DNA from: a virus
Taxonomy: Duplodnaviria > Caudoviricetes
IMG/VR virus record: IMGVR_UViG_3300021514_000002
Coordinates: 288,001 to 352,000 of that record
Strand: one strand, 5' to 3'
DNA length: 64,000 nt
Position 1 is the first letter of the stretch. Each line of letters opens with the position of its first letter. The position numbers and the translations under genes were made by a program. The notes below the pieces were generated by a model. The model worked only from the letters and a program-made list of their open reading frames with translations, was not told the origin of the DNA and did not search any database. Below are positions 3,747-38,585 of the stretch, piece by piece.

Positions 3747-3775
3747 TTGACATAGTTTAAAAAGTGATATATACT
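3747..3775 (+). promoter_or_regulatory. Host sigma70-type promoter for gp55-47-46 operon
   Basis: TTGACA-17 bp-TATACT. Confidence 0.8.
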
Positions 3776-3795
3776 GTCAATTATTGGAGAATAAA

Positions 3796-4314
3796 ATGGC
3801 AATAAAAAAAGAAGAAAAGCCGCCAGTTAAGAAAAAAGTCAATTATATAAAGAATAAAGACCTCCTTGCAGAAGTAATAGTTTGCAAGGAGGAGGGTAAG
3901 ATGTCCGATAAATTAGCGAACATGCTTATTCTTCTAACTGCAAAATATGGACGTTCATCCCAGTTTGGTGGATACACATTTAATGATGATATGCAGGCAT
4001 ATGCCTTAATGATGTTGTGTAAAACTTGGATTGGATTCAAACCCGAAAGAAGCAGCAACGCATTTGCATATTATACACAAAGTATTAAAAATTCATTTAA
4101 ACAATTCTTAAACCGTGAAAAAGTACAACGAGTTGTGCGTGATGAATTATTAGTAGATAAGGGATTAAATCCGTCATTTACATATACAAACGAACATACA
4201 ACTAGCGATTCACATTATGTTCATGATGAAGAAGACCATGGTCAATCTGTGGAAGATCTGAAGAAAATAAATGAAGATGCTAATTCAGAAGAATTAATAT
4301 CTTACAAAAAATAA
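3796..4314 (+). CDS. gp55: Late-transcription sigma factor gp55
   Basis: NYIKNKDLL..., DDMQAYALM, F.PE.SSNAFAYYTQ....F....N.EK motifs; upstream of gp47/46 as in T4-like phages; GGAG before ATG 3796. Confidence 0.88.
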   Translation: MAIKKEEKPPVKKKVNYIKNKDLLAEVIVCKEEGKMSDKLANMLILLTAKYGRSSQFGGYTFNDDMQAYALMMLCKTWIGFKPERSSNAFAYYTQSIKNSFKQFLNREKVQRVVRDELLVDKGLNPSFTYTNEHTTSDSHYVHDEEDHGQSVEDLKKINEDANSEELISYKK

Positions 4315-4339
4315 TAATAATAATACAGGAAATAACAAG

Positions 4340-5389
4340 ATGGGTAATAGCACCCCCGCATTAAGTAAAGGTGCGTACTTTACTGACTTGCATGTTGGGG
4401 CTAAATCCAATTCACAACAACATAACGAAGATTGTGTCAATTATATTGATTGGTTCTGTGCTAATGTAAAAGCAGACCCTGAAATTGATTACATTTGTTT
4501 TGTAGGTGATTGGCACGAAGTCCGAAGCGCGATTAACGTGTTTACATTAAAATATTCATATGAAATTGCTACAAAAATCAATGACTTAGATCTGCCTGTA
4601 TATTTTATCATTGGCAACCATGATCTATATCATAGAAATAATAGGGACATTTATTCAGTTGTCCCTTTTAATGAGTTTAAAAATTTCAATATAATTGATA
4701 AACCTACGGTAATTGAGAATATTGGGGATGGTGTATTAATGTGCCCATTCCTGTTCCATGAAGAATATACCAAATTATCACAATATAATAAGATTCCTTT
4801 CTGGGTAGGACATTTTGAATTCAAGGGGTTTGTTGTTACTGGTTACAATATTACAATGAAAACCGGCCCAGACCATACGGACTTCGATGGACCAGAAAAT
4901 ATTATATCTGGTCATTTTCACAAAAGACAAACTAGCGGGAACGTAACCTATATTGGGAATACCTTTCCGACTAACTTCAGTGACGCTGGGGATGTTGAAC
5001 GCGGCATGATGATTTTTAACCATACTAATAAAGATATGAAGTTTCTTGATTGGGAAGATTGTCCCAAATATATAACAGGTACCTTATCCGATATAATAGC
5101 TGAAAAAATCAAATTGTATCCAAATTCACGAGTTCGTTGTGTAGCTGATATTCCCATAACATACGAGGAAAGTTTAGAATTGAAGAAAACTTTCATAGAG
5201 GGTTATGATTTGCGGGAATTTGCTATTGAGGAATCTAGTGAAATCCAAGAAGCATTGACCGAGACAGAAACAACCATCAACGAAAGAAATCTTGGTACTG
5301 TTGATGAAATGGTAGTAGAAATGTTAAACGACATCGAATCGGAACATATCGACAATGATTTACTTTCCGAAATCTACCAAAACTTATAA
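4340..5389 (+). CDS. gp47: Recombination nuclease gp47 (Mre11/SbcD-like)
   Basis: Metallophosphoesterase motifs TDLHVG, GDW, GNHD, GHFE, SGHFH; adjacent to gp46. Confidence 0.93.
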   Translation: MGNSTPALSKGAYFTDLHVGAKSNSQQHNEDCVNYIDWFCANVKADPEIDYICFVGDWHEVRSAINVFTLKYSYEIATKINDLDLPVYFIIGNHDLYHRNNRDIYSVVPFNEFKNFNIIDKPTVIENIGDGVLMCPFLFHEEYTKLSQYNKIPFWVGHFEFKGFVVTGYNITMKTGPDHTDFDGPENIISGHFHKRQTSGNVTYIGNTFPTNFSDAGDVERGMMIFNHTNKDMKFLDWEDCPKYITGTLSDIIAEKIKLYPNSRVRCVADIPITYEESLELKKTFIEGYDLREFAIEESSEIQEALTETETTINERNLGTVDEMVVEMLNDIESEHIDNDLLSEIYQNL

Positions 5390-5415
5390 CATAAAAAAAA
5401 TAAAAAAATAGGGTT

Positions 5416-7707
5416 ATGATTAAATTTAAACAACTTTCAATTAAAAATTTTCTGTCATATGGCGAAGTTCCAACAATAATAGACCTTGACGATACGGGCA
5501 CTACGTTGATTGTAGGGGAAGATCTGGATAATACTGCATCTGGAACTGGGGCTAATGGCGTCGGGAAAACTGTATGGATAAATGCGCTTATCTACGGATT
5601 GTATGGCAAACCAATATCTAATATATCATTAGATAATCTCGTCAATAATATTAATAAGAAGAACATGGAAGTTATTATTGAATTTGAAAAAGATGGAAAT
5701 GTGTGTACTGTTAAACGTGCGCGCAAGATAACGGGTTCAGGTAACTATGCTAAAGTCTTTATCCGTCCATCTGGTACAGATTTAGATGAAAATAAGCACG
5801 ACAAGACACCAGATAGTATAAGCAATATAAATGATTTTATTGCCGAGCTACTTGGGATTCCCTATGAACTATTTGTTCGCATTGTTGCTTTTGCGGCAAC
5901 CCATACACCGTTCCTCGATTTACCTGTTAGACATGCGTCACAAGCAAATCAATCTGATATTATGGAAGAACTATTTAGACTAACACAATTGTCTGTTAAA
6001 GCAGAATCCCTTAAAGTTGAAATTAGGGATACTAAACAATCGTTAGAAATTAAAACTTTACATAATGAACATCTCGAAAAAGAACATGAGCGCCATAATA
6101 AACAATTACTATCTGCAAGAAATCGCGTAGATGATTGGGAAGATGACCGCGATGTTGAAGTGATTGCTCTAAAAAAAGTATTAGAAGATTATGAAGCTGT
6201 TCCTATTGAGGAACAAGAAAAACTATATGAGCGCGTTGCAGAATTAAAGATTACGCTTGCAGAAGAAAAAGAAAAACAACAGACCCTTGAAACGATTATT
6301 ACTGAAATTAGTGCAGAATTCACTGTATCAAAATCAAAGTTAGTGGTTATTACAGAAAGTAAAGAAAGAATTATAAAGTGGAAGGAAGAAAATATAAAGA
6401 AGATTGCTGATTATAAAGCAGCAGCTGAGAAACTTCCTACTGCATATGTACTTAGCGAACAACAAAAATTACATCAGAAACTAGATACTTTAACAGAAAA
6501 TTTAAAAACTCTTACGGCTAAAGAAAAAGAAATAGAAGGCGACATTACACTTACCACTAATGAGTTAAATGAAGCCGAAGATGAATTAGTACATCTAGAA
6601 GAAGCAAAATGTCCATATTGTTTACAACAACTTGAAGATGCTGCAGCGAAAATTAATAAATGTAAAGATGATATAAAAATTAAAGAACAAGAGTTGTTTA
6701 ATTTTTCAGTGCTTTTAGATGTTGTTCAAAAAAACATAGTAGTTACATCTAAGGATGTTAAAACAGTTTCCGATGATATTGATTATTCTATAAACGAAAT
6801 AAACAATTATGAATATACGCGCAATGAATACGTTGTAAAATTACAAGAGTTGTTTAATGAACAGTGTCCACATGGTAATGCTAAAACTGTAGGTGATATG
6901 ATTTCAGTTATTTCCGAAATGACCGAAGAAAATATGCACTTAAAAGAAACCCTTGCAAAAGAAGCCGACGGGTTAGTTGCGATTGACGATGTAATTGAAT
7001 TAATCAATAATGAATTAATAGAATGTGAAAGCAACATTACAATTTCATCCTTGAATGAATTATACGAAATAAAGAACAAAATTAAACAACAAAAAGATAA
7101 GATTAAAGAATTAAAATCTGCTATTAATCCATATCTTGCACCATTAAATGAGTTACTAGATATTAAACTGGAACCTATTGATATGGATGCAATTAATAAA
7201 CTAACTAACTTGATAACACATCAGAATTATTTAGTTAAATTATTAACCAAGAAAGATAGTTTCATTCGTAAAACATTGTTGACTAAAAACCTTGTATTTT
7301 TAAATCAACGATTAAAAGAATATCTATTAGCTTTGGGATTGCCACACAAGGTAGAATTTACCCATGAAATGACTGCAAACATATCACAATTTGGTAGAGA
7401 ATTGGATTTTGGGAACTTGTCTAGTGGACAAAAAGCGCGCGTAAATCTCGCGTTGTCTTTCTCGTTTAGGGACGTATTACAAAAATCACACGATAGTATT
7501 AATGTTTGTATGCTTGATGAAGTTCTTGACGTTGGCCTTGATTCGGTTGGCGTACAAAACGCAGCACGAATGCTGAAGCGCAAGGCACGTGATGAAGATT
7601 TGGCACTGTTCATTATTTCACACAGGGACGAAGTTAGTAATATATTCGACCGAAGAATGACAGTCCAAATGGAAAAAGGTTTCAGTTCTGTGAAGGTAGA
7701 AGAATAA
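5416..7707 (+). CDS. gp46: Recombination ATPase gp46 (Rad50/SbcC-like)
   Basis: Walker A NGVGKT, coiled coil with CPYC zinc hook, signature LSSGQ, Walker B MLDEVLD, H-loop ISH. Confidence 0.95.
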   Translation: MIKFKQLSIKNFLSYGEVPTIIDLDDTGTTLIVGEDLDNTASGTGANGVGKTVWINALIYGLYGKPISNISLDNLVNNINKKNMEVIIEFEKDGNVCTVKRARKITGSGNYAKVFIRPSGTDLDENKHDKTPDSISNINDFIAELLGIPYELFVRIVAFAATHTPFLDLPVRHASQANQSDIMEELFRLTQLSVKAESLKVEIRDTKQSLEIKTLHNEHLEKEHERHNKQLLSARNRVDDWEDDRDVEVIALKKVLEDYEAVPIEEQEKLYERVAELKITLAEEKEKQQTLETIITEISAEFTVSKSKLVVITESKERIIKWKEENIKKIADYKAAAEKLPTAYVLSEQQKLHQKLDTLTENLKTLTAKEKEIEGDITLTTNELNEAEDELVHLEEAKCPYCLQQLEDAAAKINKCKDDIKIKEQELFNFSVLLDVVQKNIVVTSKDVKTVSDDIDYSINEINNYEYTRNEYVVKLQELFNEQCPHGNAKTVGDMISVISEMTEENMHLKETLAKEADGLVAIDDVIELINNELIECESNITISSLNELYEIKNKIKQQKDKIKELKSAINPYLAPLNELLDIKLEPIDMDAINKLTNLITHQNYLVKLLTKKDSFIRKTLLTKNLVFLNQRLKEYLLALGLPHKVEFTHEMTANISQFGRELDFGNLSSGQKARVNLALSFSFRDVLQKSHDSINVCMLDEVLDVGLDSVGVQNAARMLKRKARDEDLALFIISHRDEVSNIFDRRMTVQMEKGFSSVKVEE

Positions 7708-7886
7708 TGGGAAACAACAACGAATCATATCGCATTGTGCAGGATTTTCAACTTATCAGTGTATCGCTTGTTGCTAATCCTGAAAAAGGGATGGAAATAC
7801 AAACTCTAATGGAACGCGACGTTAATATTCTCATAGATAAATACGATAGAACTATGAAATTATTGGAGATGTATATAAATGAATAA
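7707..7886 (+). CDS. 59 aa protein resembling a prohead-protease fragment, with YDRTMKLL motif (absent from ORF track)
   Basis: ATG overlaps the gp46 stop (TAATG) and the stop overlaps the next start. MGNNNESYRIVQDFQLISVSLVANPEKG...DKYDRTMKLLEMYINE. Confidence 0.7.
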   Translation: MGNNNESYRIVQDFQLISVSLVANPEKGMEIQTLMERDVNILIDKYDRTMKLLEMYINE

Positions 7887-8244
7887 CGTAGAAGCTGTTG
7901 ATTATATCAACCGTGCAAAACAAGCAATGACAAATGTAATGGAATTTTTTCTATTTGAACCGATAAATGATAATTTAATGGCACGAATGGAAACCGCCCT
8001 TGTTGGCGAATTAATTACCGAAATTGATATTGATTTTGGTGTTGATGTTAAATATGAAGACAATGATGTATGTGTGGTAGTTTCACTCGACGGAATTAAA
8101 GTTGATAAAGGAATTCTAGAAATTGAAGGACGTTATACAAACTGTCCAGCATTATTTGCGGAATTGGAAACGTTAGACGCTGCTATTGAGTTTACAGATA
8201 GTGAAAGTAATATCGCATTTGACAGGGCTATGGAAATAGTTTAA
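7879..8244 (+). CDS. Small protein resembling tail-sheath C-terminal domain, ends AFDRAMEIV
   Basis: YINR..FLFEP..LVGELI versus YIKR..FVFEP..FLGDLI in this phage's gp18; GGAG RBS. Confidence 0.7.
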   Translation: MNNVEAVDYINRAKQAMTNVMEFFLFEPINDNLMARMETALVGELITEIDIDFGVDVKYEDNDVCVVVSLDGIKVDKGILEIEGRYTNCPALFAELETLDAAIEFTDSESNIAFDRAMEIV

Positions 8245-8573
8245 TGAAATATTGGAGAGATTCAGAAGCCGAATATCTTGAATATGAAGAAGCTGGACGA
8301 ATACTACCGTATAAACATCCTGCTGCTATAGCAGCGTCTGAGGACATTCGTACAGAAGTAGAGATAATTCCTAATACTATGGAATTTCGTGACTACCTTG
8401 ATCCAACAACATTCGTTACTAGTTTACGGAAATGTGTTAAGGTAGAACGTAGGTTGTTTCGTTTTGGCAAAGACATGCTTGAACAAATTGCATGGATTCC
8501 ATTAGATATAATGGGTTACAAAGTACCACCTAATAAATTTGCGGCCTTTGAGCGCGCAATGGAGATTATATAA
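8244..8573 (+). CDS. Hypothetical protein, ends AFERAMEII
   Basis: 109 aa, TAATG-coupled to both neighbours; weak similarity to the gp23 C-terminus (DPTTF vs NPTTF). Confidence 0.7.
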   Translation: MKYWRDSEAEYLEYEEAGRILPYKHPAAIAASEDIRTEVEIIPNTMEFRDYLDPTTFVTSLRKCVKVERRLFRFGKDMLEQIAWIPLDIMGYKVPPNKFAAFERAMEII

Positions 8574-8869
8574 TGAACAATGAAATAGAAATTTCAATGT
8601 TAGATTTTACGAATATGTCGAGTGAAGATACGCATGTATTAATTAACGTGAATATTGGGGCAATGCCTCCTAAACGAGCGTACGATTATCTTGTCAATAT
8701 CAAAACAACACTTCCACTATGTAAGATGTTGAATGAAAGAGGTATCACCTATTCCCTGATTGGTTGTAGATCTGATGGGGCTGGTAATATTGTAACAAGT
8801 ATCGAATCTAATGATAATATTGTTGATACAGAAAATACAAAGTTTGATGACGCAATGAATATTGTTTAA
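8573..8869 (+). CDS. Small protein resembling a portal (gp20) fragment, ends KFDDAMNIV
   Basis: INVNIGAMPPKRAYDYLVNIK versus IDVGKMPPQRVKQYLEGIK, and RSDGAG versus RPDGRG, in this phage's portal. Confidence 0.75.
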   Translation: MNNEIEISMLDFTNMSSEDTHVLINVNIGAMPPKRAYDYLVNIKTTLPLCKMLNERGITYSLIGCRSDGAGNIVTSIESNDNIVDTENTKFDDAMNIV

Positions 8870-8969
8870 TTTTAACATATTTTAAGTTATTGATTTTGAT
8901 AATAAAAAATTAATTAAATATTCCTTATAGGTGGTATACTAAATATTACCAATTATAAGGAATATTTCA

Positions 8970-15764: not shown

Positions 15765-15843
15765 TTAAACGCAAGGTTTGCTAAAAAATAGTCCTCATAA
15801 ATATAATTATAATAGTAAACATACACTAAGAAGAATTAATTTT

Positions 15844-17472
15844 ATGACAGCAAAATGGACGGGATATTTTAAGGTTGTTTCACCGCAACCCTCTACAACC
15901 AAAATGACAGATAGCCAGGAAATGGCTGACTCTGGCGCGTACAACAACTATACATGGTATCAACGATTAGTACAAGGTTCCGCATCACGTATGACGCGGT
16001 ATCGTGAATATGATCTCATGGATAATGACATTGAAGTCGCGCGTGCACTTGATACTATCGCAGAAGAAATGACAGGGAATAATCCTAAAACAAAAGAACC
16101 TCTTATTCTTGATATTATGACAGAAGATGAAGACAATGTTGAAGGCATTGCGGTTCTTACGTTGAAGGCAGCATTACGACGTTGGGCACATTTGCACAAT
16201 TTTCCAAATCGTTTATATGCCATTGCACGCTTAACAATAAAATATGGCGATGTTTTTTTCCGCAAAGGAAAAAAACTAAATGATAAGTGGCAATTCATTC
16301 ATCCTAAAAATATAATTGCAGCCGTTGTTGATGAACATGATGCAACTAAAGTTTTGGCATGGCAGATGAAAAAAGATATAGAAAAACCAAGAACTGGTGG
16401 TTATGCTATGCCAATCGGCGCTAAAGAAGATTCTGCACATGAAAGTGAAATTGTTTCAACTAATGAACTTATTCGCTTTTCGTTAAACGATGATATGTCA
16501 GATACCCAACCATTTGGTGAATCTGTTCTACGTCCAGTTTATCGTTCACACAAACAAAAAGAATTATTGGAAGATGCTGTTATTATCTATCGTGTACAAC
16601 GTGCACCTGAGCGTCGTGTATTCTATATTGATGTTGGTAAGATGCCTCCACAGCGTGTTAAACAATACCTTGAAGGTATTAAGAATGAAATTAAACAAAA
16701 GAAAATCCCAACACAAAATGGTGGACAATCAGAAGTAGATTCCGTTTATAACCCACATTCAATGAGTGAAGATTTCTTTTTCGCGTCACGACCAGATGGT
16801 CGTGGTTCACGCGTTGAAACATTACCAGGTGGTCAAGGTCTTGGTGAATTATCCGATCTTGAATACTTCCAACGTAAAGTCTGGCGTGGTTTGAAAGTTC
16901 CAGTCTCTTATATGATAGAACAACAAGAAGGTGGCCAAGTCTGGAATGATGGTAAAGTCGGCATCGCATATATTCAGGAATTGCGTTTTTCATTATACGT
17001 AGAACGACTACAAGGTTATCTTGAAAGAACATTAGATGCTGAATTTAAAGAATTCTTACGCAAGACGAATATCCGCATTGATGAATCAATGTATCGTATT
17101 ATGCTTCCAGAACCTTCTAACTTTGGTAAGTACAAACAACTTGAATTAGATAGTCAGTTACTTAGTGCATATACAACTCCAGATGGAATTAGTTATATGT
17201 CTAAACGATTTGCAATGAAACGCTATTTACAAATGTCTGATGAAGAAATGATTACCAATGAACGGTTAAAGCGCGAAGAATTAGGTATTGATGCTGATAG
17301 TACAGATCCTGCCGACTTACAAGCAATCTATGGTGCACCAGAAGAAGGTGCCATGGGCGGCATGACAGGTGGCCTAGGTGGTGGATTTGGTGGTGCAGAA
17401 TTAGGCATGAGCGGTGAACCCGCAACCCCAGAAAGTGGCACTCCACCCGCTGCTGCAACGCCAACAACATAA
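15844..17472 (+). CDS. gp20: Portal vertex protein gp20
   Basis: LEDAVIIYRVQRAPERRVFYIDVGKMPP and EDFFF..R.DGRGSRVETLPGG; probable start MTAKW at 15844. Confidence 0.97.
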   Translation: MTAKWTGYFKVVSPQPSTTKMTDSQEMADSGAYNNYTWYQRLVQGSASRMTRYREYDLMDNDIEVARALDTIAEEMTGNNPKTKEPLILDIMTEDEDNVEGIAVLTLKAALRRWAHLHNFPNRLYAIARLTIKYGDVFFRKGKKLNDKWQFIHPKNIIAAVVDEHDATKVLAWQMKKDIEKPRTGGYAMPIGAKEDSAHESEIVSTNELIRFSLNDDMSDTQPFGESVLRPVYRSHKQKELLEDAVIIYRVQRAPERRVFYIDVGKMPPQRVKQYLEGIKNEIKQKKIPTQNGGQSEVDSVYNPHSMSEDFFFASRPDGRGSRVETLPGGQGLGELSDLEYFQRKVWRGLKVPVSYMIEQQEGGQVWNDGKVGIAYIQELRFSLYVERLQGYLERTLDAEFKEFLRKTNIRIDESMYRIMLPEPSNFGKYKQLELDSQLLSAYTTPDGISYMSKRFAMKRYLQMSDEEMITNERLKREELGIDADSTDPADLQAIYGAPEEGAMGGMTGGLGGGFGGAELGMSGEPATPESGTPPAAATPTT

Positions 17473-19158: not shown

Positions 19159-20139
19159 ATGGAAGAACTACTGCAAAAACTATTGGAAGCAGAAGTGCTA
19201 TCTGAAGATACTAAGAAAGAATTAGAAAGCGCTTTCCAACAAAAGTTGGACGAAGCTATAACTGCTGCCAAAGATGATGCAGCTGCCGATGTCCGTGCCG
19301 AGCTTACTGAACAGTGGGTTGTAGAACGTGATCAGCTTATAGAAGCCGTCGATTCCAAAGTAACAGAATTTCTTGGAAAAGAAGTTGAAGAATTAAAAGA
19401 AGATATCGAACGCTTTCGTGATCTCGAAGCTGAATATGCTGAAAAATTAGTTGAATCTAAAGCAGCTATGTCAGATGAGTTGAAAGATGATTTGATGGAA
19501 CTTGTAGAAAAAGTTGATGCGTTCTTAGAAATCCGCCTTGGTGCTGAAATCGAAGAATTACGTGAAGATCTTGAAAGCGTTCGTAAGAATGATTTTGGTC
19601 GTCGTGTATTTGAAGCATTTTCTGATGAGTTCATGGTTAACTACTCTGATGAAGAATCAGCAGAAGTATCATTACGTGAAACTCAAGAACGTCTTCGTGA
19701 CGCAGAAGACGCATTAGTGGAATCTGAATCCAAGCGTGCTGAAACAGATCGTACTATCGCAATGGAAACAATTTTATCATCACTTGCTGGACGCCAGCGC
19801 GAAGTGATGGAAGCAATCCTCCGAAACGTTGACACGGATCATTTGGAAGAAGGCTATAAGACCTTTATTGGTCGCGTAATCCGTGAAACAGATAACTCAG
19901 AGAAGGAAGGTTCAGTACTAGCTGAGAGTGAAGAAAAAGATGACGACAATGACGACAACGATGATAAGAAATCTAAGAAAGCTAAGTCTAAAGAAGGTAA
20001 AGACGAAGACGATAAGAAAGAAAAGATCGAAGAAGGCACAAAAGTCACAGGCAATACCGAAGAAATGATTATTGAGACTGCAGATCCTGCAAATAAAGCT
20101 CAACTTGATTATCTTCGTAAACTCGCAGGCATTAACTAA
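19159..20139 (+). CDS. gp22: Prohead scaffold protein gp22
   Basis: Acidic coiled coil between gp21 and gp23; ends YLRKLAGIN. Confidence 0.88.
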   Translation: MEELLQKLLEAEVLSEDTKKELESAFQQKLDEAITAAKDDAAADVRAELTEQWVVERDQLIEAVDSKVTEFLGKEVEELKEDIERFRDLEAEYAEKLVESKAAMSDELKDDLMELVEKVDAFLEIRLGAEIEELREDLESVRKNDFGRRVFEAFSDEFMVNYSDEESAEVSLRETQERLRDAEDALVESESKRAETDRTIAMETILSSLAGRQREVMEAILRNVDTDHLEEGYKTFIGRVIRETDNSEKEGSVLAESEEKDDDNDDNDDKKSKKAKSKEGKDEDDKKEKIEEGTKVTGNTEEMIIETADPANKAQLDYLRKLAGIN

Positions 20140-30090: not shown

Positions 30091-31923
30091 ATGGCAACTT
30101 TGGTAAGCCCAGGTGTAAGTGTAACAGTAACAGATGAAAGTTTTTTCATCCCTGTATCAGCGCCTACAGTCCCTTTGTTTTTTATTGCGACAGCCGATGA
30201 AAAATTCCGCCCTGATGGTTTAACGCCAGCAGAAGGCACATACGAATATAATGTTGTTCGCACCGTTACATCTTTAAATCAAAGTACACAATTATATGGT
30301 GTTCCAAAGTTTCTTGAAGATGATACATCAGGCAAACCACATCATGGTGATGCCCGTAACGAATACGGATTATTTGCTTTAAACCAATACTTGGGATTAG
30401 GCAATCGCGCATATGTTGTACGCTCAAACGTTAACTTAAATGATAATATTACAGATATCCGCACTATGTGGGATACAAAAATTCTTGAAGCGCAAACAGT
30501 ACTTCAAAACTTAATTCAGAATTTTTTAAATGAAAAGGATGCAATTGGCACACCAGCGCAAGTACCTGATGGTTCACCTGTTGGTTCACCAATAGTATAT
30601 GTAGACGGCTCACCGTTAGTATACGTTCCGAATCTTCCAGGCACATCAACAACCGTAACCGCCGCCGAATTACAAGATCTTGCAAGAACTGCAACTGCAG
30701 AATTGTTTTCTTCATATTCGTTTAATATCGTAGATACTGATTTCTTTGGTGCCGTGGGCGTAGCCTCTGGGCTTCTTGTTTATGCTAATGGATATTCATT
30801 AGCATCAACGGGGGTCTTTGATGGATTTGATTACATGACATCTAATATTGGCTCATATCCATCTTATCCTGGTGGTACAGGTTCACCTCCTGGTGAATTT
30901 ACTGCAGTAGAGGGCGCGGCGTTCTTAGTTGCTGCTGCTGATGATATGAAATTCACGCTTGAATTTTTATCACAAACAAGTCTTGGTGCTAATGATGCCG
31001 CCCGTCGTACAGCGATTGTAACAGCACTTCAAGCATCTATTGTTTCAAATACAGATATTCGTGCTGAAAACTTTGATTATAATTTAATTACATGTCCTGG
31101 TTATCCAGAGGTTGCAGACGAGTTACTTAGTCTTGTTGCAGACATGCAGGATGAAGCATTAGTTATTGCTGATACTCCAATGAATTTAGATCCAGATGGT
31201 ATTACCAATCCATCAACGGGTTGGGCTGGTACTGTTGCTCGTCAACGTTCTACGCACATTGCATATTATTATCCATCAGCCCTTGCCTCAAATCTTGATG
31301 GTAAGAATGTTGTTTGTTCGGCAGCAGGTGTTGCTCTTCGCACATATACTTATAGTGATAATGTATCATTCTTATGGTTTGCACCAGCTGGTATCCGTCG
31401 TGGTCTTATCACAGGAATATCAAATCTTGGTTACGTAACAGGTGAATTAGGTACCCCAACAACATTTGTTGAGGTAAGTTTAAATCCTGGTCAACGCGAT
31501 GCGTTGTATCAATACTTGGCATCTGGTGATATTAATCCATTAGTATTCTTCCCAGGAAATGGCTTCCTTGTTTGGGGACAGAAAACTTCTGCACCTGCTG
31601 CAAGCGCAATGGATCGTGTTAGTGTTTCACGGCTTATGAAATACATTAAACGTCAACTTCGTAGAAATACGTTAAGTTTCGTATTTGAACCAAATGATCA
31701 ATTAACACGTGATAATTTAAAAGCGGTTATAGATGGCTTCCTCGGTGACTTAATTGTTAAACGTGGATTATACGATTACGCTACTATTTGTGATGAAAGT
31801 AATAACACACCGGATAGAATTGATAGAAATGAATTATATGTTGATATTGCATTGAAACCCGTTAAAGCGGCAGAATTTATCTACATACCAATTCGTATAG
31901 TTGCAACTGGTGCAGAAATTTAA
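30091..31923 (+). CDS. gp18: Tail sheath protein gp18
   Basis: LVSPGVSV...DES, WFAPAG.RRG, WGQKT, FEPND..TR, CDESNNT...IDRN..KP..AEFI. Confidence 0.97.
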   Translation: MATLVSPGVSVTVTDESFFIPVSAPTVPLFFIATADEKFRPDGLTPAEGTYEYNVVRTVTSLNQSTQLYGVPKFLEDDTSGKPHHGDARNEYGLFALNQYLGLGNRAYVVRSNVNLNDNITDIRTMWDTKILEAQTVLQNLIQNFLNEKDAIGTPAQVPDGSPVGSPIVYVDGSPLVYVPNLPGTSTTVTAAELQDLARTATAELFSSYSFNIVDTDFFGAVGVASGLLVYANGYSLASTGVFDGFDYMTSNIGSYPSYPGGTGSPPGEFTAVEGAAFLVAAADDMKFTLEFLSQTSLGANDAARRTAIVTALQASIVSNTDIRAENFDYNLITCPGYPEVADELLSLVADMQDEALVIADTPMNLDPDGITNPSTGWAGTVARQRSTHIAYYYPSALASNLDGKNVVCSAAGVALRTYTYSDNVSFLWFAPAGIRRGLITGISNLGYVTGELGTPTTFVEVSLNPGQRDALYQYLASGDINPLVFFPGNGFLVWGQKTSAPAASAMDRVSVSRLMKYIKRQLRRNTLSFVFEPNDQLTRDNLKAVIDGFLGDLIVKRGLYDYATICDESNNTPDRIDRNELYVDIALKPVKAAEFIYIPIRIVATGAEI

Positions 31924-34578: not shown

Positions 34579-35019
34579 ATGACTACTGACACTACTGAAG
34601 TTGAAATGATTATTGAACATCCATTAGAAGAAATATTTGATATTGAATCAGGTACGACGCTAATACCTCGTACGGAGAAAACTACAGAATTAGTAGCGGG
34701 AGAAGAATATGATGATAAAGATAAAGAAATTGAAGATCAGTTTCAAGAAGTATATGACCATGCCCTTTCCGCATTCGAAGATCAAGTAGCAGAAGCAGAA
34801 GTTATTGAAGGAAAATATAAAGCACGCAACATGGAAGTTGGTGTTCAGTTATTAAATACCGCCCTTGCCGCAGCAAAAGAAAAATCATCACTGAAACAAC
34901 ATAAAGATAAGACAGCACTCGCCAAAGGAAAACTTACAGGGAAAACGGTCAACCACAATAACCTCATTATAGCTGACCGCAACGAGTTATTAAAAACGTT
35001 GATGAATAAAAAAGATTAA
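34579..35019 (+). CDS. gp16: Terminase small subunit gp16 (putative)
   Basis: Helical; AR.MEV..QLLNT, NHNNLII..R.ELLK; upstream of the large terminase. Confidence 0.7.
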   Translation: MTTDTTEVEMIIEHPLEEIFDIESGTTLIPRTEKTTELVAGEEYDDKDKEIEDQFQEVYDHALSAFEDQVAEAEVIEGKYKARNMEVGVQLLNTALAAAKEKSSLKQHKDKTALAKGKLTGKTVNHNNLIIADRNELLKTLMNKKD

Positions 35020-36137
35020 TCTAATATTTTCATCGCAGATTCAAAAGCATCAGATATTAGTTCATCAACTTCAGTCATACTTTCAATATTATCCGATTCT
35101 TTTTTTTCTTCAATCTTAAATGTTATATCTTTTAGTTTCGGTAAGTTATCCAATGTTAATTCGTAATAATAGTTACATGGTTCTTTTGTGATTGTAGTTG
35201 TCGCACCATCTTCCGTAGTAATTGTTTCTGTCGGCTGATTAACGTATTTACCGTAGCGTGACATAAATGTTGCAAAAGGTGCAAAAGTATCAGGATCTAC
35301 TACAATCTGAGCCATTGTTGGAATATATGGTGCGTAAATGTAACCAGTATCAGTTTCACCATTACCGCCTTTATATCCAATAATAGTTTTACCATGTTCA
35401 AGTCCGAAATCACAATATACTTTTATAGAACCATACAATGTTCCAATGTATTCGATGTAGCCATAATCGTATTCATTAAGTGCTTGTGGTATAAAGTTGT
35501 TACTATTTTTTAGGATTTCTGCAACGGCTTCAGACGCGATTACAAAATTACCACAACCTCGACGTGATTTCCTTGCAATTGAATTTGCGCATGAACTTAT
35601 AGATATCCCAATCTTCACAATTTTATTTTGATCAATATCCTTACCATCCCCTACGATTTTTTCAACGTCAAGTGACGCTTTATGTGCAATCCCAGAAATA
35701 TCATTTCTAATTTCTTCGTATATTTCTTTGGCGATTTCTGTACAAGGATTTACTTTATCATCAAATACCCCTGCGTTTATATCTTCTAAGGCTTCAAGTG
35801 ATAAACGTGTTTCTAATTTTCGCGCCCCTGCTTCTACTGCTTGCGAATTTATAGTTAGACTAATTCTGGTACCTACGTTGTTTTCTTCGTCTATAGGTTC
35901 TTCGTCTGTTATTTCATATTCTAATGAAAATATTAATCCAACAGGCGCTGTCATTGGTTGCACCCCAACAAAATGTCTGACAGCTAGACTATCAATCACT
36001 TCTGATGTAATATTTCTAATCATGTCTGCGCTTGAACTTGCACCCATGCCCGCAACGCTTTCAAGATAATCGTCTGTATTTTTAAGCAATGTATCCTTAA
36101 TTATGTCTTTTGTCTGCTCTGTATCTACTACGTTCAT
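35016..36137 (-). CDS. Second gp23-like capsid protein paralogue, ends DAFESAMKILD
   Basis: VGVQPMT.PVGL, VEAG.RKL, IARK.RRG.GNF and GYKGGNGETDTGY are shared with gp23; start moved to ATG 36137 (GAGG RBS). Confidence 0.88.
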   Translation of the reverse strand: MNVVDTEQTKDIIKDTLLKNTDDYLESVAGMGASSSADMIRNITSEVIDSLAVRHFVGVQPMTAPVGLIFSLEYEITDEEPIDEENNVGTRISLTINSQAVEAGARKLETRLSLEALEDINAGVFDDKVNPCTEIAKEIYEEIRNDISGIAHKASLDVEKIVGDGKDIDQNKIVKIGISISSCANSIARKSRRGCGNFVIASEAVAEILKNSNNFIPQALNEYDYGYIEYIGTLYGSIKVYCDFGLEHGKTIIGYKGGNGETDTGYIYAPYIPTMAQIVVDPDTFAPFATFMSRYGKYVNQPTETITTEDGATTTITKEPCNYYYELTLDNLPKLKDITFKIEEKKESDNIESMTEVDELISDAFESAMKILD

Positions 36138-36153
36138 AATTCTATCCTCTTTC

Positions 36154-36227
36154 TCTTTATTTACTACTTTAAAAATTAGACATCCCAATAGATTGGTAAC
36201 CCAAAAATGTGTGGTAGTAAATAAAGA
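36154..36227. promoter_or_regulatory. Divergent promoter pair forming a perfect 14 bp inverted repeat
   Basis: GTAGTAAATAAAGA on both strands (36154-36167 minus, 36214-36227 plus), each with a late-promoter-like TAAATA core. Confidence 0.65.
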
Positions 36228-36228
36228 T

Positions 36229-37017
36229 ATGAAAAAAGAAATATTAAACGAATTACATGAACGACAGAACTTGCTAAATCTTGTGATAAATTCTGCAAGA
36301 GATCCGTCTTATTTTATAGAACACTATGCGAAGATACAACATCCAACAAAAGGTGCTGTTCCTTTTAAACCATATAAAAAACAAGAACAGTTGTTATATT
36401 CGTATCAGGAAAATCGTTGGAATATAACATTGGGTTCTAGGCAGACAGGAATCACTATAACTAATGCACTATACGCCTTCTGGTTTGCTATGTTTAAATC
36501 AGATAAAACTATAATGATTGCGGGTGAAAAGTTGCGACATTCTAAAGATATTTTACATAGTATTAGATTTGCGTATGAAAATTTACCCAAGTGGCTACAA
36601 GCCCGCAATAAATTAGTGATCAATAATAAATGTATGATGCAATTTGAAAATGGTACAAGGATTTTGGCGATAGCGCCGACTATATATGCAGTTAGAGGAT
36701 TTTCGGTCGATCTTATGATATTAGATTGTTTTGCATATATGTCACCAAATAAACAAGAAGAATTTTATACGTCACTATATCCTGCAACAATGGGTTCAAA
36801 AAATAGTGTAATGATTATGAGTTCGACTGGCGGCGGATATGACGGGGTATTTACCTCCATTTGGGATGATGCTTTGGCGAAAAAGAATAAATTCGTGGCA
36901 AACTTTATTAAATGGAATGATGTACCTGAACGGGATGATGGGTTCAAGGATTCAATGGTTTCCATGCTTGGAGAAACACGATGGAAAGTGGAGTATGAAT
37001 GCTCTTTTGATAATTAA
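36229..37017 (+). CDS. Terminase ATPase-domain paralogue with degenerate Walker motifs
   Basis: Collinear with the N-terminal half of gp17; SRQTGIT (vs ARQTGKS) and MILDCFA (vs LFLDEFA); stops right after EYEC, so it has no nuclease domain. Confidence 0.85.
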   Translation: MKKEILNELHERQNLLNLVINSARDPSYFIEHYAKIQHPTKGAVPFKPYKKQEQLLYSYQENRWNITLGSRQTGITITNALYAFWFAMFKSDKTIMIAGEKLRHSKDILHSIRFAYENLPKWLQARNKLVINNKCMMQFENGTRILAIAPTIYAVRGFSVDLMILDCFAYMSPNKQEEFYTSLYPATMGSKNSVMIMSSTGGGYDGVFTSIWDDALAKKNKFVANFIKWNDVPERDDGFKDSMVSMLGETRWKVEYECSFDN

Positions 37018-37028
37018 GGAAGATTATA

Positions 37029-38585
37029 ATGGCGCGCGCAAAGAATGATAAGTTAAAAACCCCCGATCAGGAAGTTGAATTTACATATGAACAGGTACAA
37101 GAGCTAAAGCGTTGTGTTCAAGATCCTATTTACTTTATAGAAAATTACGTTCAAATACAACATCCCGTTAAGGGTGCCGTTCCCTTTCGGTTATATCCAT
37201 ATCAAAAAAATATGATTCGTGCATATCAAGATAACCGTTACACTGTAGTACTTTCTGCACGTCAAACTGGTAAATCTATAACATCCGCCGCCTACCTTCT
37301 TTGGTATGCAATGTTCCAGTTTGATAAAACCGTCCTGATTGCAGCCAATAAAAACGCAAATGCAATGGAAATGATTTTACGTATTCGTTTTGCATATGAA
37401 AATCTTCCAATGTGGTTGAAAGCTGGCGTTAAAGACGATGGTTGGAATAAACATGAAATTGGCTTTGATAATGGTTCCCGTATCGTGTCAACCGCAACAT
37501 CGGAAGATTCTGGTCGTGGTATGGCTATTTCACTTTTGTTCCTTGACGAATTTGCATTTGTAAAACCTAATATCCAAGATGAATTTTGGACATCAATAGC
37601 ACCTACATTATCAACTGGTGGTTCGTGTATAATGACATCAACGCCTAATGGTGACATGAATATTTATGCTCAGGTTTGGCGCGGTTCGCAAATGGGTACT
37701 AATGGATTTTTCCCTATACATGTTAAATGGGACGAACCCCCAGGCAGAGATGGTAAGTTTAAAGAGGAGGAAACTGGAAGGATTGGTGTCCGTCGTTGGC
37801 AACAAGAATATGAATGTGTCTTTTTGTCATCAGATTCATTGCTTATTGATTCGTTATTTCTTACGAACCTAACGCCGTTAATTGAAGCAATCGTTCCTAA
37901 GCTTACTGTAAACGATGTTGTTTTGTTTGATGAAATAAAACCAGCAAATACATATTTACTGGGTGTCGATCCTGCTACTGGCAGTGGTGAAGATTATAGT
38001 GTTATCACTATATTTGAATTTCCGTCAATGACTCAGGTTGGTGAATATCGTAGTAATACAATGTCCACAAATGATTTATATGGTGTTATGAAAAATATAT
38101 TAAAACATATAGAATCAAAAGGAGCGATGGTATATTTCTCAATAGAAAATAACGGCGTTGGTCAGGGATTAATTGCATTATATGAAGCTGATGAAGAGCC
38201 ATTAAAACTTGCTGAGTTTGTTTCAGAAGACGGCAAGAATAAATTAGGATTCACAACAACAGCACGTAGTAAAATGCGCTCGTGTGTTAACCTGAAAGAA
38301 ATGCTTGAAAAAGAAAATATGCATATTACTTCAAGAATCCTTTTATCTGAATTAAAGTCTTATGTTCGTTCACGTGGTGCATATGCAGCGCAAGCAGGTG
38401 CAACAGATGATTGTATAGCTGCAACGCTTATTGTACTTAGATTAGTAGAAGAGATCGCGGCGTATGAGCAGGCGGCGTTTGATAAACTATATGCAGGCGA
38501 TTATGATGAATGGAAGCAATCAGACTGGGATGGATATGAAGAAGGATACGATGAAAACGACGAGGGATTGCCTAGTATATTTTAA
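37029..38585 (+). CDS. gp17: Terminase large subunit gp17
   Basis: ARQTGKS, LFLDEFAF, TSTPNG, LGVDPATG.G.DYS, DDC..A. Confidence 0.97.
   Translation: MARAKNDKLKTPDQEVEFTYEQVQELKRCVQDPIYFIENYVQIQHPVKGAVPFRLYPYQKNMIRAYQDNRYTVVLSARQTGKSITSAAYLLWYAMFQFDKTVLIAANKNANAMEMILRIRFAYENLPMWLKAGVKDDGWNKHEIGFDNGSRIVSTATSEDSGRGMAISLLFLDEFAFVKPNIQDEFWTSIAPTLSTGGSCIMTSTPNGDMNIYAQVWRGSQMGTNGFFPIHVKWDEPPGRDGKFKEEETGRIGVRRWQQEYECVFLSSDSLLIDSLFLTNLTPLIEAIVPKLTVNDVVLFDEIKPANTYLLGVDPATGSGEDYSVITIFEFPSMTQVGEYRSNTMSTNDLYGVMKNILKHIESKGAMVYFSIENNGVGQGLIALYEADEEPLKLAEFVSEDGKNKLGFTTTARSKMRSCVNLKEMLEKENMHITSRILLSELKSYVRSRGAYAAQAGATDDCIAATLIVLRLVEEIAAYEQAAFDKLYAGDYDEWKQSDWDGYEEGYDENDEGLPSIF

Follow-up and report, generated by a model that had tools for sequence, protein, structure and literature searches.

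At least 14 open reading frames (ORFs) of an uncultured T4-like jumbo phage from a hydrothermal vent metagenome (G000, genome of 363,531 bp) end in one shared short peptide. This tag, [FY]-[DEN]-x-[AST]-M-x-[ILV]-[ILVM] followed by 0–7 residues and the stop codon, exists, is modular and terminal, and is under purifying selection. It appears to be a short amphipathic peptide, selected as a peptide, which serves as a portable module on unrelated proteins, and it looks like a portable address label because several of its carriers are cut-down copies of the phage’s own portal, sheath and capsid proteins. We infer that the tag docks on a single partner, and our guess at that partner is the prohead scaffolding core.

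Five of the carriers lie in the window, the 64,000-nt stretch of DNA analysed as a whole (positions 288001–352000 of the G000 genome), to which coordinates refer unless the genome is named. The tag-bearing relatives used for comparison were the phage G001, two Logan contigs and 12 retrieved relatives of one carrier, here called the collage protein. A search of the phage collection for DNA nearly identical to the region gave 0 matches, and single-protein scans of IMG/VR found no relatives of the collage protein or of the tagged capsid paralogue.

Definition and Statistics of the Tag

The original prediction read five termini in the window, namely KYDRTMKLL followed by EMYINE, and AFDRAMEIV, AFERAMEII, KFDDAMNIV and AFESAMKILD directly before their stop codons. 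All five are present in the sequence, and in a six-frame translation the proposed consensus matches these five places only, as expected from the claim that no other protein of the window ends in this way. Its window view missed both the genome-wide spread of the tag and the virion-protein ancestry of many carriers. In the whole genome, a slightly relaxed pattern matched 13 ORFs, with 13 of 13 matches no more than 8 residues from the stop codon, and the set of 572 predicted genes contained no internal match; 300 shuffles of the proteome yielded means of 0.023 C-terminal matches and 0.53 matches anywhere. A position-weight scan gave 14 C-termini with scores of at least 13.5 and a next-best C-terminus of 7.2 across the genome, while the best internal positions in the 572-gene set reached about 11 (in gp22) and 10.6. 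A blind gapped-triplet search of the last 12 residues likewise placed pieces of the tag at the top, with 20- to 46-fold enrichment, and found no comparable N-terminal motif, including T4-type ones, to be enriched in the genome.

The residues after the tag number 0, 1, 2, 6 or 7 and are of varying kind. The carrier bodies include a capsid paralogue of the Gp23 fold, a portal fragment, a probable sheath-C/gp25-like domain, a DUF6794 protein (a family on which we found no literature) and small Cys-rich proteins. The description of the carriers as otherwise unrelated stands for the carriers compared with each other, but several of them are related to the phage’s own virion proteins. Carriers are acidic, with a median pI of 4.5 vs 6.0 for the small proteins of the genome (p = 4e-4). 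In a pattern scan of metagenomes, most matches outside the clade were ordinary enzymes that end so by chance; inspection by eye suggested a FAD-dependent oxidase and glycosyltransferases among them. A tube-like paralogue in L101 ending YDHAMIY was considered as a carrier and rejected, the true tube protein having the homologous RYDHAR.

The Four-Gene Cassette

Four tagged genes, c1 to c4, stand together on the forward strand in a tightly packed string. Its upstream part (3747–7707, +) contains a sigma-70-like promoter (TTGACA, 17 bp, TATACT; about 3747–3775, +), then a 176-aa ORF (+) and two recombination genes, one gp47/SbcD-like (4340–5389, +) and one gp46/SbcC-like (5416–7707, +), the stop codon of the latter overlapping the start of c1. 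From sbcC through c4, start and stop codons overlap by 1–8 nt throughout. The late-promoter box TATAAATA is present at the sheath gene and at a 1033-aa gene, whereas the 120 bp ahead of each tagged gene are free of it.

The first gene, c1 (59 aa; 7707–7886, +), bears the tag YDRTMKLL at 7842–7865, with 6 residues behind it. Residues 11–25 weakly resemble residues 141–155 of the prohead protease gp21: the window copy and the G001 copy both align locally to the same gp21 segment (z ~3), and a profile comparison matches three gp21 proteins there as well, with E-values of 2.8–7.6. The G001 orthologue is 56% identical and ends KYDKAMKLLET. In c2 (121 aa; 7879–8244, +; tag FDRAMEIV at 8218–8241), the body is probably a tail-sheath C-terminal or gp25-like “handshake” domain. 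Its FxFEP block aligns to residues 514–557 of the tail sheath gp18 (30091–31923, +), with z values of 4.3 for the G001 copy and 1.0 for the window copy, and weak profile matches to three sheath proteins cover the same region. In G001, the orthologue ends AFERAMEIV and has 37% identity.

No Pfam or PHROG match was obtained for c3 (109 aa; 8244–8573, +; tag FERAMEII at 8547–8570), and pairwise alignment and profile comparison gave no significant match to gp23 or other phage proteins. Its four orthologues are 46–85% identical, and 4/4 end F[DE]xAM[EK]II. Two origins proposed for c3 were discarded: a gp23 fragment found no support in pairwise alignment, profile or fold search, and a weak likeness to a 657-aa tail-region protein of the phages XacN1 and RAS14 is absent with the phage’s own copy. 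The body of c4 (98 aa; 8573–8869, +; tag FDDAMNIV at 8843–8866) is a diverged portal fragment that covers about portal residues 283–315 (by eye to ~345). It aligns to the portal gp20 (15778–17472, +) with z values of 6.2 for the window copy and 8.3 for the G001 copy, the profile matches both portals (E = 2e-3), and the G001 copy, 44% identical and ending AFDEAMEIV, carries DVGKMPPQRV exactly as in the portal. Neither c2 nor c4 has a Pfam match.

The AlphaFold model of c2 comprises two helices, three strands, a disordered linker and a tag helix at residues 109–119; that of c3 has a five-strand sheet (pLDDT ~77) and a tag helix at 98–108 with pLDDT below 50. Structure matches of c2 to the sheath C-terminal parts of phi-kp24 and phi812 and to gp25-like, TssE-like and IraD proteins have Z values of 6–7.5, which is the usual noise level, and Foldseek searches of the PDB with the c2 and c3 models returned nothing significant. 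The original prediction of a short amphipathic helix that docks on one common partner, as a degron, adaptor or localisation signal, is partly supported: in the two models the tag is a low-confidence terminal helix behind a disordered acidic linker, and no partner was found. A co-fold of gp22 with the collage C-terminus scored 0.00, which by the tool’s rule is no evidence either way.

The Capsid Paralogue and the Collage Protein

The fifth carrier of the window is a gp24-like capsid paralogue of 390 aa (35016–36188, −; start codon uncertain), in which the tag FESAMKIL at 35022–35045 is followed by D and the stop. It matches Pfam Gp23 PF07068 (2.7e-53; 182 bits vs a cut-off of 24.4), is 35% identical to the phage’s own gp23, and has an acidic C-terminal extension. 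The orthologue in G001, which ends AFEVAMEILD, shares 48% identity with it, as against 86% for gp23 itself between the two phages. By eye, a cleavage-like site, YLE|S, can be read at the position of IAE|S in gp23.

The collage protein (435 aa) is composed of pieces of sheath-C, capsid and portal, with the tag at its C-terminus. Its sheath-C module is 41% identical to its parent gp18, which is probably also the parent of c2, and matches Phage_sheath_1C PF17482 with 38.2 bits vs a cut-off of 26.9 (model 2–103 of 104). The portal module, whose parent, as for c4, is gp20, matches Portal_T4 PF07230 with 45.4 bits vs a cut-off of 22.9; since the match is limited to model 254–308 of 433, this piece is a fragment and not a portal. 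The family is modular, its N-terminus resembles that of gp22, and it stands directly after the clamp loader gp44 on 4/4 contigs with readable context. Compared with XacN1 and RAS14, the gene is inserted between gp44 and a conserved 105–111-aa gene; an assignment of the collage N-terminus to the clamp-loader subunit gp62 was rejected, the gene being an insertion after gp44. The tag region of the family aligns with the portal stretch ELRFSLYVERLQ. In one variant (L117), the tag follows straight after the sheath module without any portal piece, and the tag is therefore independent of the module that precedes it. We found no described counterpart of the collage gene in the literature.

Conservation of the Tag While the Bodies Diverge

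Core virion proteins of G000 and G001 are 80–91% identical. The bodies of the carrier orthologues are 37–56% identical between the two phages, whereas the tag is kept in all of them; it is also kept in the two Logan contigs and the 12 collage relatives, with bodies across these relatives down to 37–66%. The named relatives XacN1 and RAS14 have no tags, no virion-protein fragments and no collage gene. A degenerate form of the pattern has no match in XacN1, Xoo-sp13, RsoM2USA or Vibrio phage 2.275.O, and in RAS14 it matches at two internal chance positions only.

Such conservation might act on the nucleic acid, the motif being a DNA repeat, a terminator or the ribosome-binding site of a downstream gene that overlaps, and the M-E codons (ATG GAR) in the cassette do contain GGA or GGAG 8–10 nt before the next start codon. 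However, synonymous positions differ between the copies, as had been claimed for them, and also between orthologues, which refutes this explanation and argues for selection on the peptide. The motif occurs on both strands and is always in frame at the C-terminus, and blastn revealed no DNA repeat family beyond short chance-level matches. Several carriers, among them c4 and the capsid paralogue, are not immediately followed by another gene; because this holds for c4 in the cassette, a ribosome-binding-site constraint cannot explain the motif. The chance that the conservation lies at this level is practically nil.

Another explanation dispenses with a common partner and takes the shared ending as a remnant of common descent among diverged tandem paralogues, or as an intrinsic structural cap. 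Some carriers do form paralogous pairs (65412/65699 and 135927/147455), and several stand in tandem. But the carriers are of clearly different folds (Gp23, portal fragment, sheath-C-like, DUF6794), a linker separates body from tag, and the tag is conserved between G000 and G001 while the bodies diverge. This explanation is largely refuted and very improbable.

Candidate Partners of the Tag

In T-even phages, the internal proteins connected with defence are highly diverse and have in common only a short terminal sequence, which targets them to the scaffolding core for loading (PMC3012670). By analogy, the tag may direct its carriers to the capsid core, as a C-terminal equivalent of the capsid targeting sequence (CTS) at the N-terminus of T4 internal proteins, a reading that we hold tentatively. 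It would be an acidic-hydrophobic docking peptide of about 8 residues on a flexible acidic linker, probably helical once bound. One clade of marine T4-like jumbo phages would have equipped a shifting repertoire of small accessory proteins, most of them very acidic, with this peptide, and the cut-down portal, sheath and capsid copies and the collage protein would reach one shared partner through it. With the prohead scaffolding core as the likeliest partner, the tagged proteins would be loaded into the head and perhaps ejected into the next host.

Several observations favour the head core. One carrier is a full-length gp23-family paralogue with a cleavage-like site aligned to that of gp23. Residues ~106–114 of gp22, the probable scaffold protein (19159–20139, +), read DDLMELVEK, close to the collage tag DDAMELVK; in an alignment of four gp22 proteins this stretch is present in the tag-bearing G000 and G001 and missing from the tag-less XacN1 and RAS14. 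The likeness between the collage and gp22 N-termini points the same way, and no other terminal motif is enriched in the genome. On the other hand, the carriers are strongly acidic, whereas T4 internal proteins are mostly basic, and a head offers no evident role for pieces derived from the sheath. A sigma-70-type promoter serves the cassette together with recombination genes and there is no nearby late box at tagged genes, although the genes of T4 internal proteins are transcribed early too. No (L/I)xE protease site is regularly placed before the tag in the carriers of the genome, and the gp22 likeness was noticed only after the fact and hardly exceeds the noise of the weight-matrix scan.

It is unlikely that the tag instead tethers its carriers, as a degron or adaptor tail, to an ATP-dependent unfoldase or protease of the phage or host; in the adaptor case, the virion-like bodies would be bait, and the targets they bind would be delivered to the machine. 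Two tagged loci are one gene downstream of AAA ATPases, one BCS1-like (458 aa, with a membrane anchor) and the other related to it (324 aa), and for both the similarity found in XacN1 and RAS14 is confined to the AAA core. The genome also encodes a ClpP-like peptidase, and the tail A-M-E-I-L-K resembles A-L-R-V-V-K, the C-terminal peptide by which SspB binds ClpX. Among structural neighbours of c2, the gp25-like IraD, bound to the adaptor RssB, ranks best, a lead only at a noise-level Z of 7.5. PF00004 matches adjoin tagged genes in 3/4 cases, but one of the three is the clamp loader gp44, so that the neighbourhood link is weaker than it first looked, and most tagged loci have no ATPase nearby. 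The ClpP-like gene is present in tag-less relatives too, and the 0 to 7 extra residues after the motif are unlike degrons that need an exact free C-terminus.

We consider it improbable, too, that the tag docks on another hub, such as the portal, a host protein or a component of the replisome or recombination machinery, in the last case by imitating the acidic tail of the phage single-strand-binding protein. Tagged genes do belong to operons for replication and recombination, where they follow gp46/47 or gp45/gp44 or adjoin DprA-like and primase genes; the gp32 tail contains the loosely tag-like DSDDILAII; and the collage tag region aligns to the portal stretch. Yet the gp32 stretch is below threshold in the weight-matrix scan, and the L117 variant carries the tag without a portal piece. 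The tag is not the clamp motif, because the phage has a separate clamp-type tail, DS[IL]LDF, already on its DNA polymerase and the neighbour of that gene. The positions of tagged genes may only reflect insertion hot spots, a possibility raised by the collage gene being an insertion relative to XacN1 and RAS14.

A distinctly unlikely reading of the bodies is that the tagged fragments and the collage protein are baits or decoys meant for host sensors (Avs-type and similar) of core phage proteins, or for proteins with which rival phages assemble. Bacteria are known to possess sensors for core proteins of phages, among them the portal, the capsid and the tail tube (PMC11364771). As decoys, the carriers would expose those parts of the portal, capsid, sheath and protease that are most conserved, and the tag would couple every bait to one fate, either packaging in the capsid for delivery alongside the DNA or transfer to an unfoldase or protease.

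Comparison with Known Systems and Implications

The closest comparison is with the CTS of T4 IPI, IPII, IPIII and Alt, which is likewise an amphipathic acidic-hydrophobic terminal peptide, of ~10 residues, and the only shared feature of fast-evolving small proteins (PMC3012670). Here, too, unrelated small proteins (14 carriers) share only a short terminal peptide; unlike the CTS, it is C-terminal and of other sequence, and its carriers are acidic. The CTS stands at the N-terminus, where the prohead protease removes it by cleavage after (L/I)xE, an arrangement of peptide and site that is not found with the tag. Encapsulin cargo-loading peptides and HK97-type protease or scaffold tails are C-terminal and bring unrelated cargo, on a flexible linker, into an HK97-fold shell; the tag is similarly a short C-terminal peptide on a linker, but bears no sequence resemblance to them.

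The T4-type clamp-binding tails (gp43, gp33, gp55) offer another parallel, one hydrophobic-acidic C-terminal tail that takes unrelated proteins to one hub. The clamp-type tail of this phage, however, is on its DNA polymerase (genome 259945–262587, ending SLLTDSLLDF) and two other proteins, and the tag is a distinct motif on a distinct set. The SspB tail (for ClpX), the ssrA tag and MIM helices (for the MIT domain of Vps4) are short C-terminal peptides or helices that recruit many proteins to one ATPase. Here, however, the number of residues after the tag varies, against the fixed distance to the free C-terminus on which ssrA-like recognition depends, and only two tagged loci adjoin non-replicative AAA genes. 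Mimics of virion proteins, such as capsid-redirecting proteins of satellites and tail-assembly interference, resemble the carriers in that, in the conflicts of mobile elements and hosts, lookalikes or binders of structural proteins serve as weapons or shields. Here, by contrast, the diverged pieces derive from the portal, sheath and capsid of the very phage that encodes them; all share one tag, and some are strung into a single polypeptide. For a phage that encodes tagged pieces of its own virion proteins, we found no described counterpart in the literature.

T4 loads anti-restriction proteins into its head by means of short terminal address peptides. If the head-core reading is true, a second, unrelated tag, at the C-terminus and in a distant T4-like jumbo phage, would mean that this strategy evolved more than once, and the cargo or client proteins of the phage could be listed in one step from sequence alone. 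The tag is short, sharply defined and easily tried on a reporter protein. Its carriers are unusual in being diverged pieces of the phage’s own virion, including a rapidly reshuffled collage gene, and if they were baits for host sensors or rival phages, they would represent a new principle of counter-defence.

Phage and gene neighbourhood

The 363,531-bp record is estimated to be complete, and the window is T4-like in content: it carries SbcCD of the gp46/gp47 type, a RuvC-like resolvase and a helicase, head genes for portal, prohead protease, scaffold and major capsid protein gp23, and tail and packaging genes for tail sheath, tail tube and the small and large terminase. By capsid protein, the nearest named phages are Xanthomonas phage XacN1 (61% identity), Xoo-sp13, Stenotrophomonas RAS14/CM1 and Ralstonia RsoM2USA. 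The full stretch is present in only one sequencing run, a hydrothermal vent metagenome, with small shares of it turning up in runs of vent, marine-sediment, marine and cold-seep origin.

A promoter close to the sigma-70 consensus (TTGACA, 17 bp, TATACT; window about 3747-3775, + strand) heads a string of genes comprising a 176-aa ORF, sbcD, sbcC and four cassette genes, c1-c4 (window 7707-8869, +), while TATAAATA late-type boxes precede the sheath gene and a 1033-aa gene. Between c4 and the RuvC-like gene (window 8880-8969) lie an AT-rich stretch and the inverted repeat TTCCTTATA ... TATAAGGAA.

A C-terminal peptide under selection

The original prediction had proposed that c1-c4 and a 390-aa protein (window 35016-36188, -) share a short C-terminal peptide, and all five termini were found exactly as described. 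The motif [FY]-[DEN]-x-[AST]-M-x-[ILV]-[ILVM] occurs 13 times genome-wide, always at most 8 residues from a stop; none of the 572 predicted genes has it internally. Enrichment over a shuffled proteome, a check set in advance, is clearly present (300 shuffles: mean 0.53 matches anywhere, 0.023 at C-termini). With a weight matrix, 14 C-termini score at least 13.5 and the next one 7.2; internal positions across the 572 genes all stay below 11. A blind search for gapped triplets enriched in the last 12 residues returned tag pieces only, at 20-46-fold, and the same search found no comparable N-terminal motif.

Scanning IMG/VR with the back-translated tag plus stop yielded a 61.6-kb fragment from a related phage, G001, in synteny with the window. 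Its orthologues of c1-c4 and of the 390-aa protein all keep the tag, as do two more c3 orthologues in Logan assemblies. The bodies of the tagged orthologues are 37-56% identical between the two phages, whereas portal, protease, capsid, terminase and sheath proteins are 80-91% identical, so that fast-evolving bodies are combined with a stable tag. The earlier claim that selection acts on the peptide rather than on a DNA repeat is borne out, since codons vary at synonymous sites and the tag persists in diverged orthologues; blastn revealed no DNA repeat family behind the tags. Varying codons and the missing repeat family rule out a nucleic-acid signal, and the joint alternative of such a signal, or of tags that have no common partner, is highly improbable. 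The tag is very probably a portable docking peptide under selection, with a putative partner. Two AlphaFold models place a moderately confident body before a stretch with pLDDT below 50 and a low-confidence terminal helix over the tag; on these models, built from very shallow alignments, the disordered stretch and helix would have the look of a peptide that folds on binding.

A clamp-binding tail was considered and ruled out, for DS[IL]LDF, the ending of the DNA polymerase and of its neighbour, belongs to a separate motif class. The polymerase ends in DSLLDF and the next, 138-aa gene in DSILDF (genome 259945-263004, outside the window), and a 293-aa protein ends in NGLIDF (genome 190296-191177, outside the window); from their sequences, these endings look like the T4-type sliding-clamp-binding tail.

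Carriers of the tag

The 390-aa carrier is a capsid paralogue of the gp23 family (Pfam 2.7e-53) whose C-terminus is extended by an acidic stretch; as read by eye, it has YLE|S in place of the gp23 IAE|S. Judged from sequence, c4 is a diverged portal fragment: its alignment to the portal gives z of 6-8 and a profile E of 2e-3, and the portal's exact DVGKMPPQRV is found in the G001 copy. This assignment is upheld, and those of c2 to sheath and c1 to protease more weakly. The c2 body is probably a sheath C-terminal or gp25-like domain. It has an FxFEP block in common with sheath, and weak profile matches recur at a single site of three sheath proteins. Its structural neighbours, among them the C-terminal sheath domains of two phages and proteins like gp25/TssE, reach Z 6-7.5, which lies in the tool's noise band. 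The resemblance of c1 to protease gp21 is weak and concerns one gp21 strand region. For c3, alignment, profile and fold searches gave no assignable relative, and its assignment as a gp23 piece was not upheld. Carriers outside the window include a DUF6794 protein, two Cys-rich paralogues, two mutually similar small paralogues and three singletons. Because the folds differ, the tag is not a remnant of common descent. The carriers are markedly acidic, their median pI being 4.5, whereas the genome's small proteins have a median of 6.0 (p = 4e-4).

Untagged copies of virion proteins also occur. An extra terminase large-subunit ATPase-domain copy (window 36229-37017, +), ending in EYECSFDN and absent from G001, immediately precedes the complete terminase gene (37029-38585); two tandem 106-aa proteins are similar to the last part of the sheath C-terminal domain (genome 236003-236649, -), and a third gp23-like protein has 298 aa (genome 24225-25121, -).

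A tagged collage protein

One further carrier, of 435 aa (genome 223295-224602), joins pieces of several virion proteins, and Pfam places both Phage_sheath_1C and Portal_T4 on it. A protease-like GVSSRG block near residue 80 is followed by a complete sheath C-terminal domain (residues 188-289, 41% identical to gp18 through gp18's last residue), a piece of capsid protein (295-330) and a portal piece (336-432, 43% identical). Records in the phage collection cover 39% of it at most. When 1.84 billion representative proteins were scanned in full with HMMER, a family (P0006-P0015, P0017, P0074) of 115-530 aa was recovered. Its members have an N-terminal peptide in common; the GVSSRG block is usually present, and the portal piece and a helix-loop-helix at the C-terminus, ending in FDDAMEL[VLI]K, are present in nearly all. 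Sheath and capsid modules come and go among members. In one member the portal piece precedes the sheath piece, in another the gp23 piece is a different one, with 96% identity to gp23 of this phage, and a variant on the 178-kb contig L117 consists of N-terminus, sheath module and tag only.

Wherever the context is readable, the gene directly follows clamp loader gp44, and it is an insertion relative to XacN1 and RAS14, which are without tags, mini-fragments and collage gene. In L117 (1747-3783, -) the gp44 ORF has 678 aa versus 310 aa, the matched part being 82% identical; an inserted element, for instance an intein, may account for the longer form.

The small gene that comes next likewise bears a tag in relatives, where it ends in DFDDSMELVK (contig L089, 1795-2028) or DFDAAMEIIK (L090, 11548-11781). 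Its counterpart here (genome 223101-223298, -) has the degenerate ending VVSEELIK, which suggests, from this comparison, that tags can decay. A relative's 77-aa protein (L101, 1885-2118, -) combines a gp22-like N-terminal peptide with the capsid-protein piece GFFYCPYIPVM, and its ending, GVAMAIGA, resembles a decayed tag.

Candidate partners and possible role

As partner we tentatively propose the head core, a putative docking site that is possible rather than probable. The T4 capsid targeting sequence has the same pattern as the tag, one carrier is a capsid paralogue, the collage N-terminus is similar to that of scaffold gp22, and gp22 of tag-bearing phages has DDLMELVEK, close to the collage tag and absent in XacN1 and RAS14. 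Against it, the parallel with gp22 was recognised post hoc, the tagged proteins are acidic, a head would be an odd place for sheath pieces, the cassette stands under a sigma-70-type promoter with no late promoter box nearby, and no regular protease site adjoining the tag was found.

An AAA+ machine or protease seems an unlikely partner: BCS1-like AAA genes precede two tagged loci and the genome has a ClpP-like gene, but the third such neighbour turned out to be the clamp loader, and tag-less relatives also have a ClpP-like gene. The membrane-anchored BCS1-like ATPase (BCS1_N and AAA domains; genome 136703-138079, -) and a related 324-aa AAA protein (genome 84834-85808, -) each lie one gene upstream of a tagged gene, and have only AAA-core similarity in XacN1 and RAS14. 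Docking on another hub is likewise doubtful.

Whichever the partner, three traits would fit a bait or decoy role: the virion-like tagged proteins evolve fast, retain their parents' most conserved motifs and carry a common tag. Bacteria are known to have sensors of core phage proteins, capsid, portal and tail tube among them, and interference with assembly is an established weapon (PMC11364771). Because such sensors and weapons are known, that role is conceivable for these proteins.
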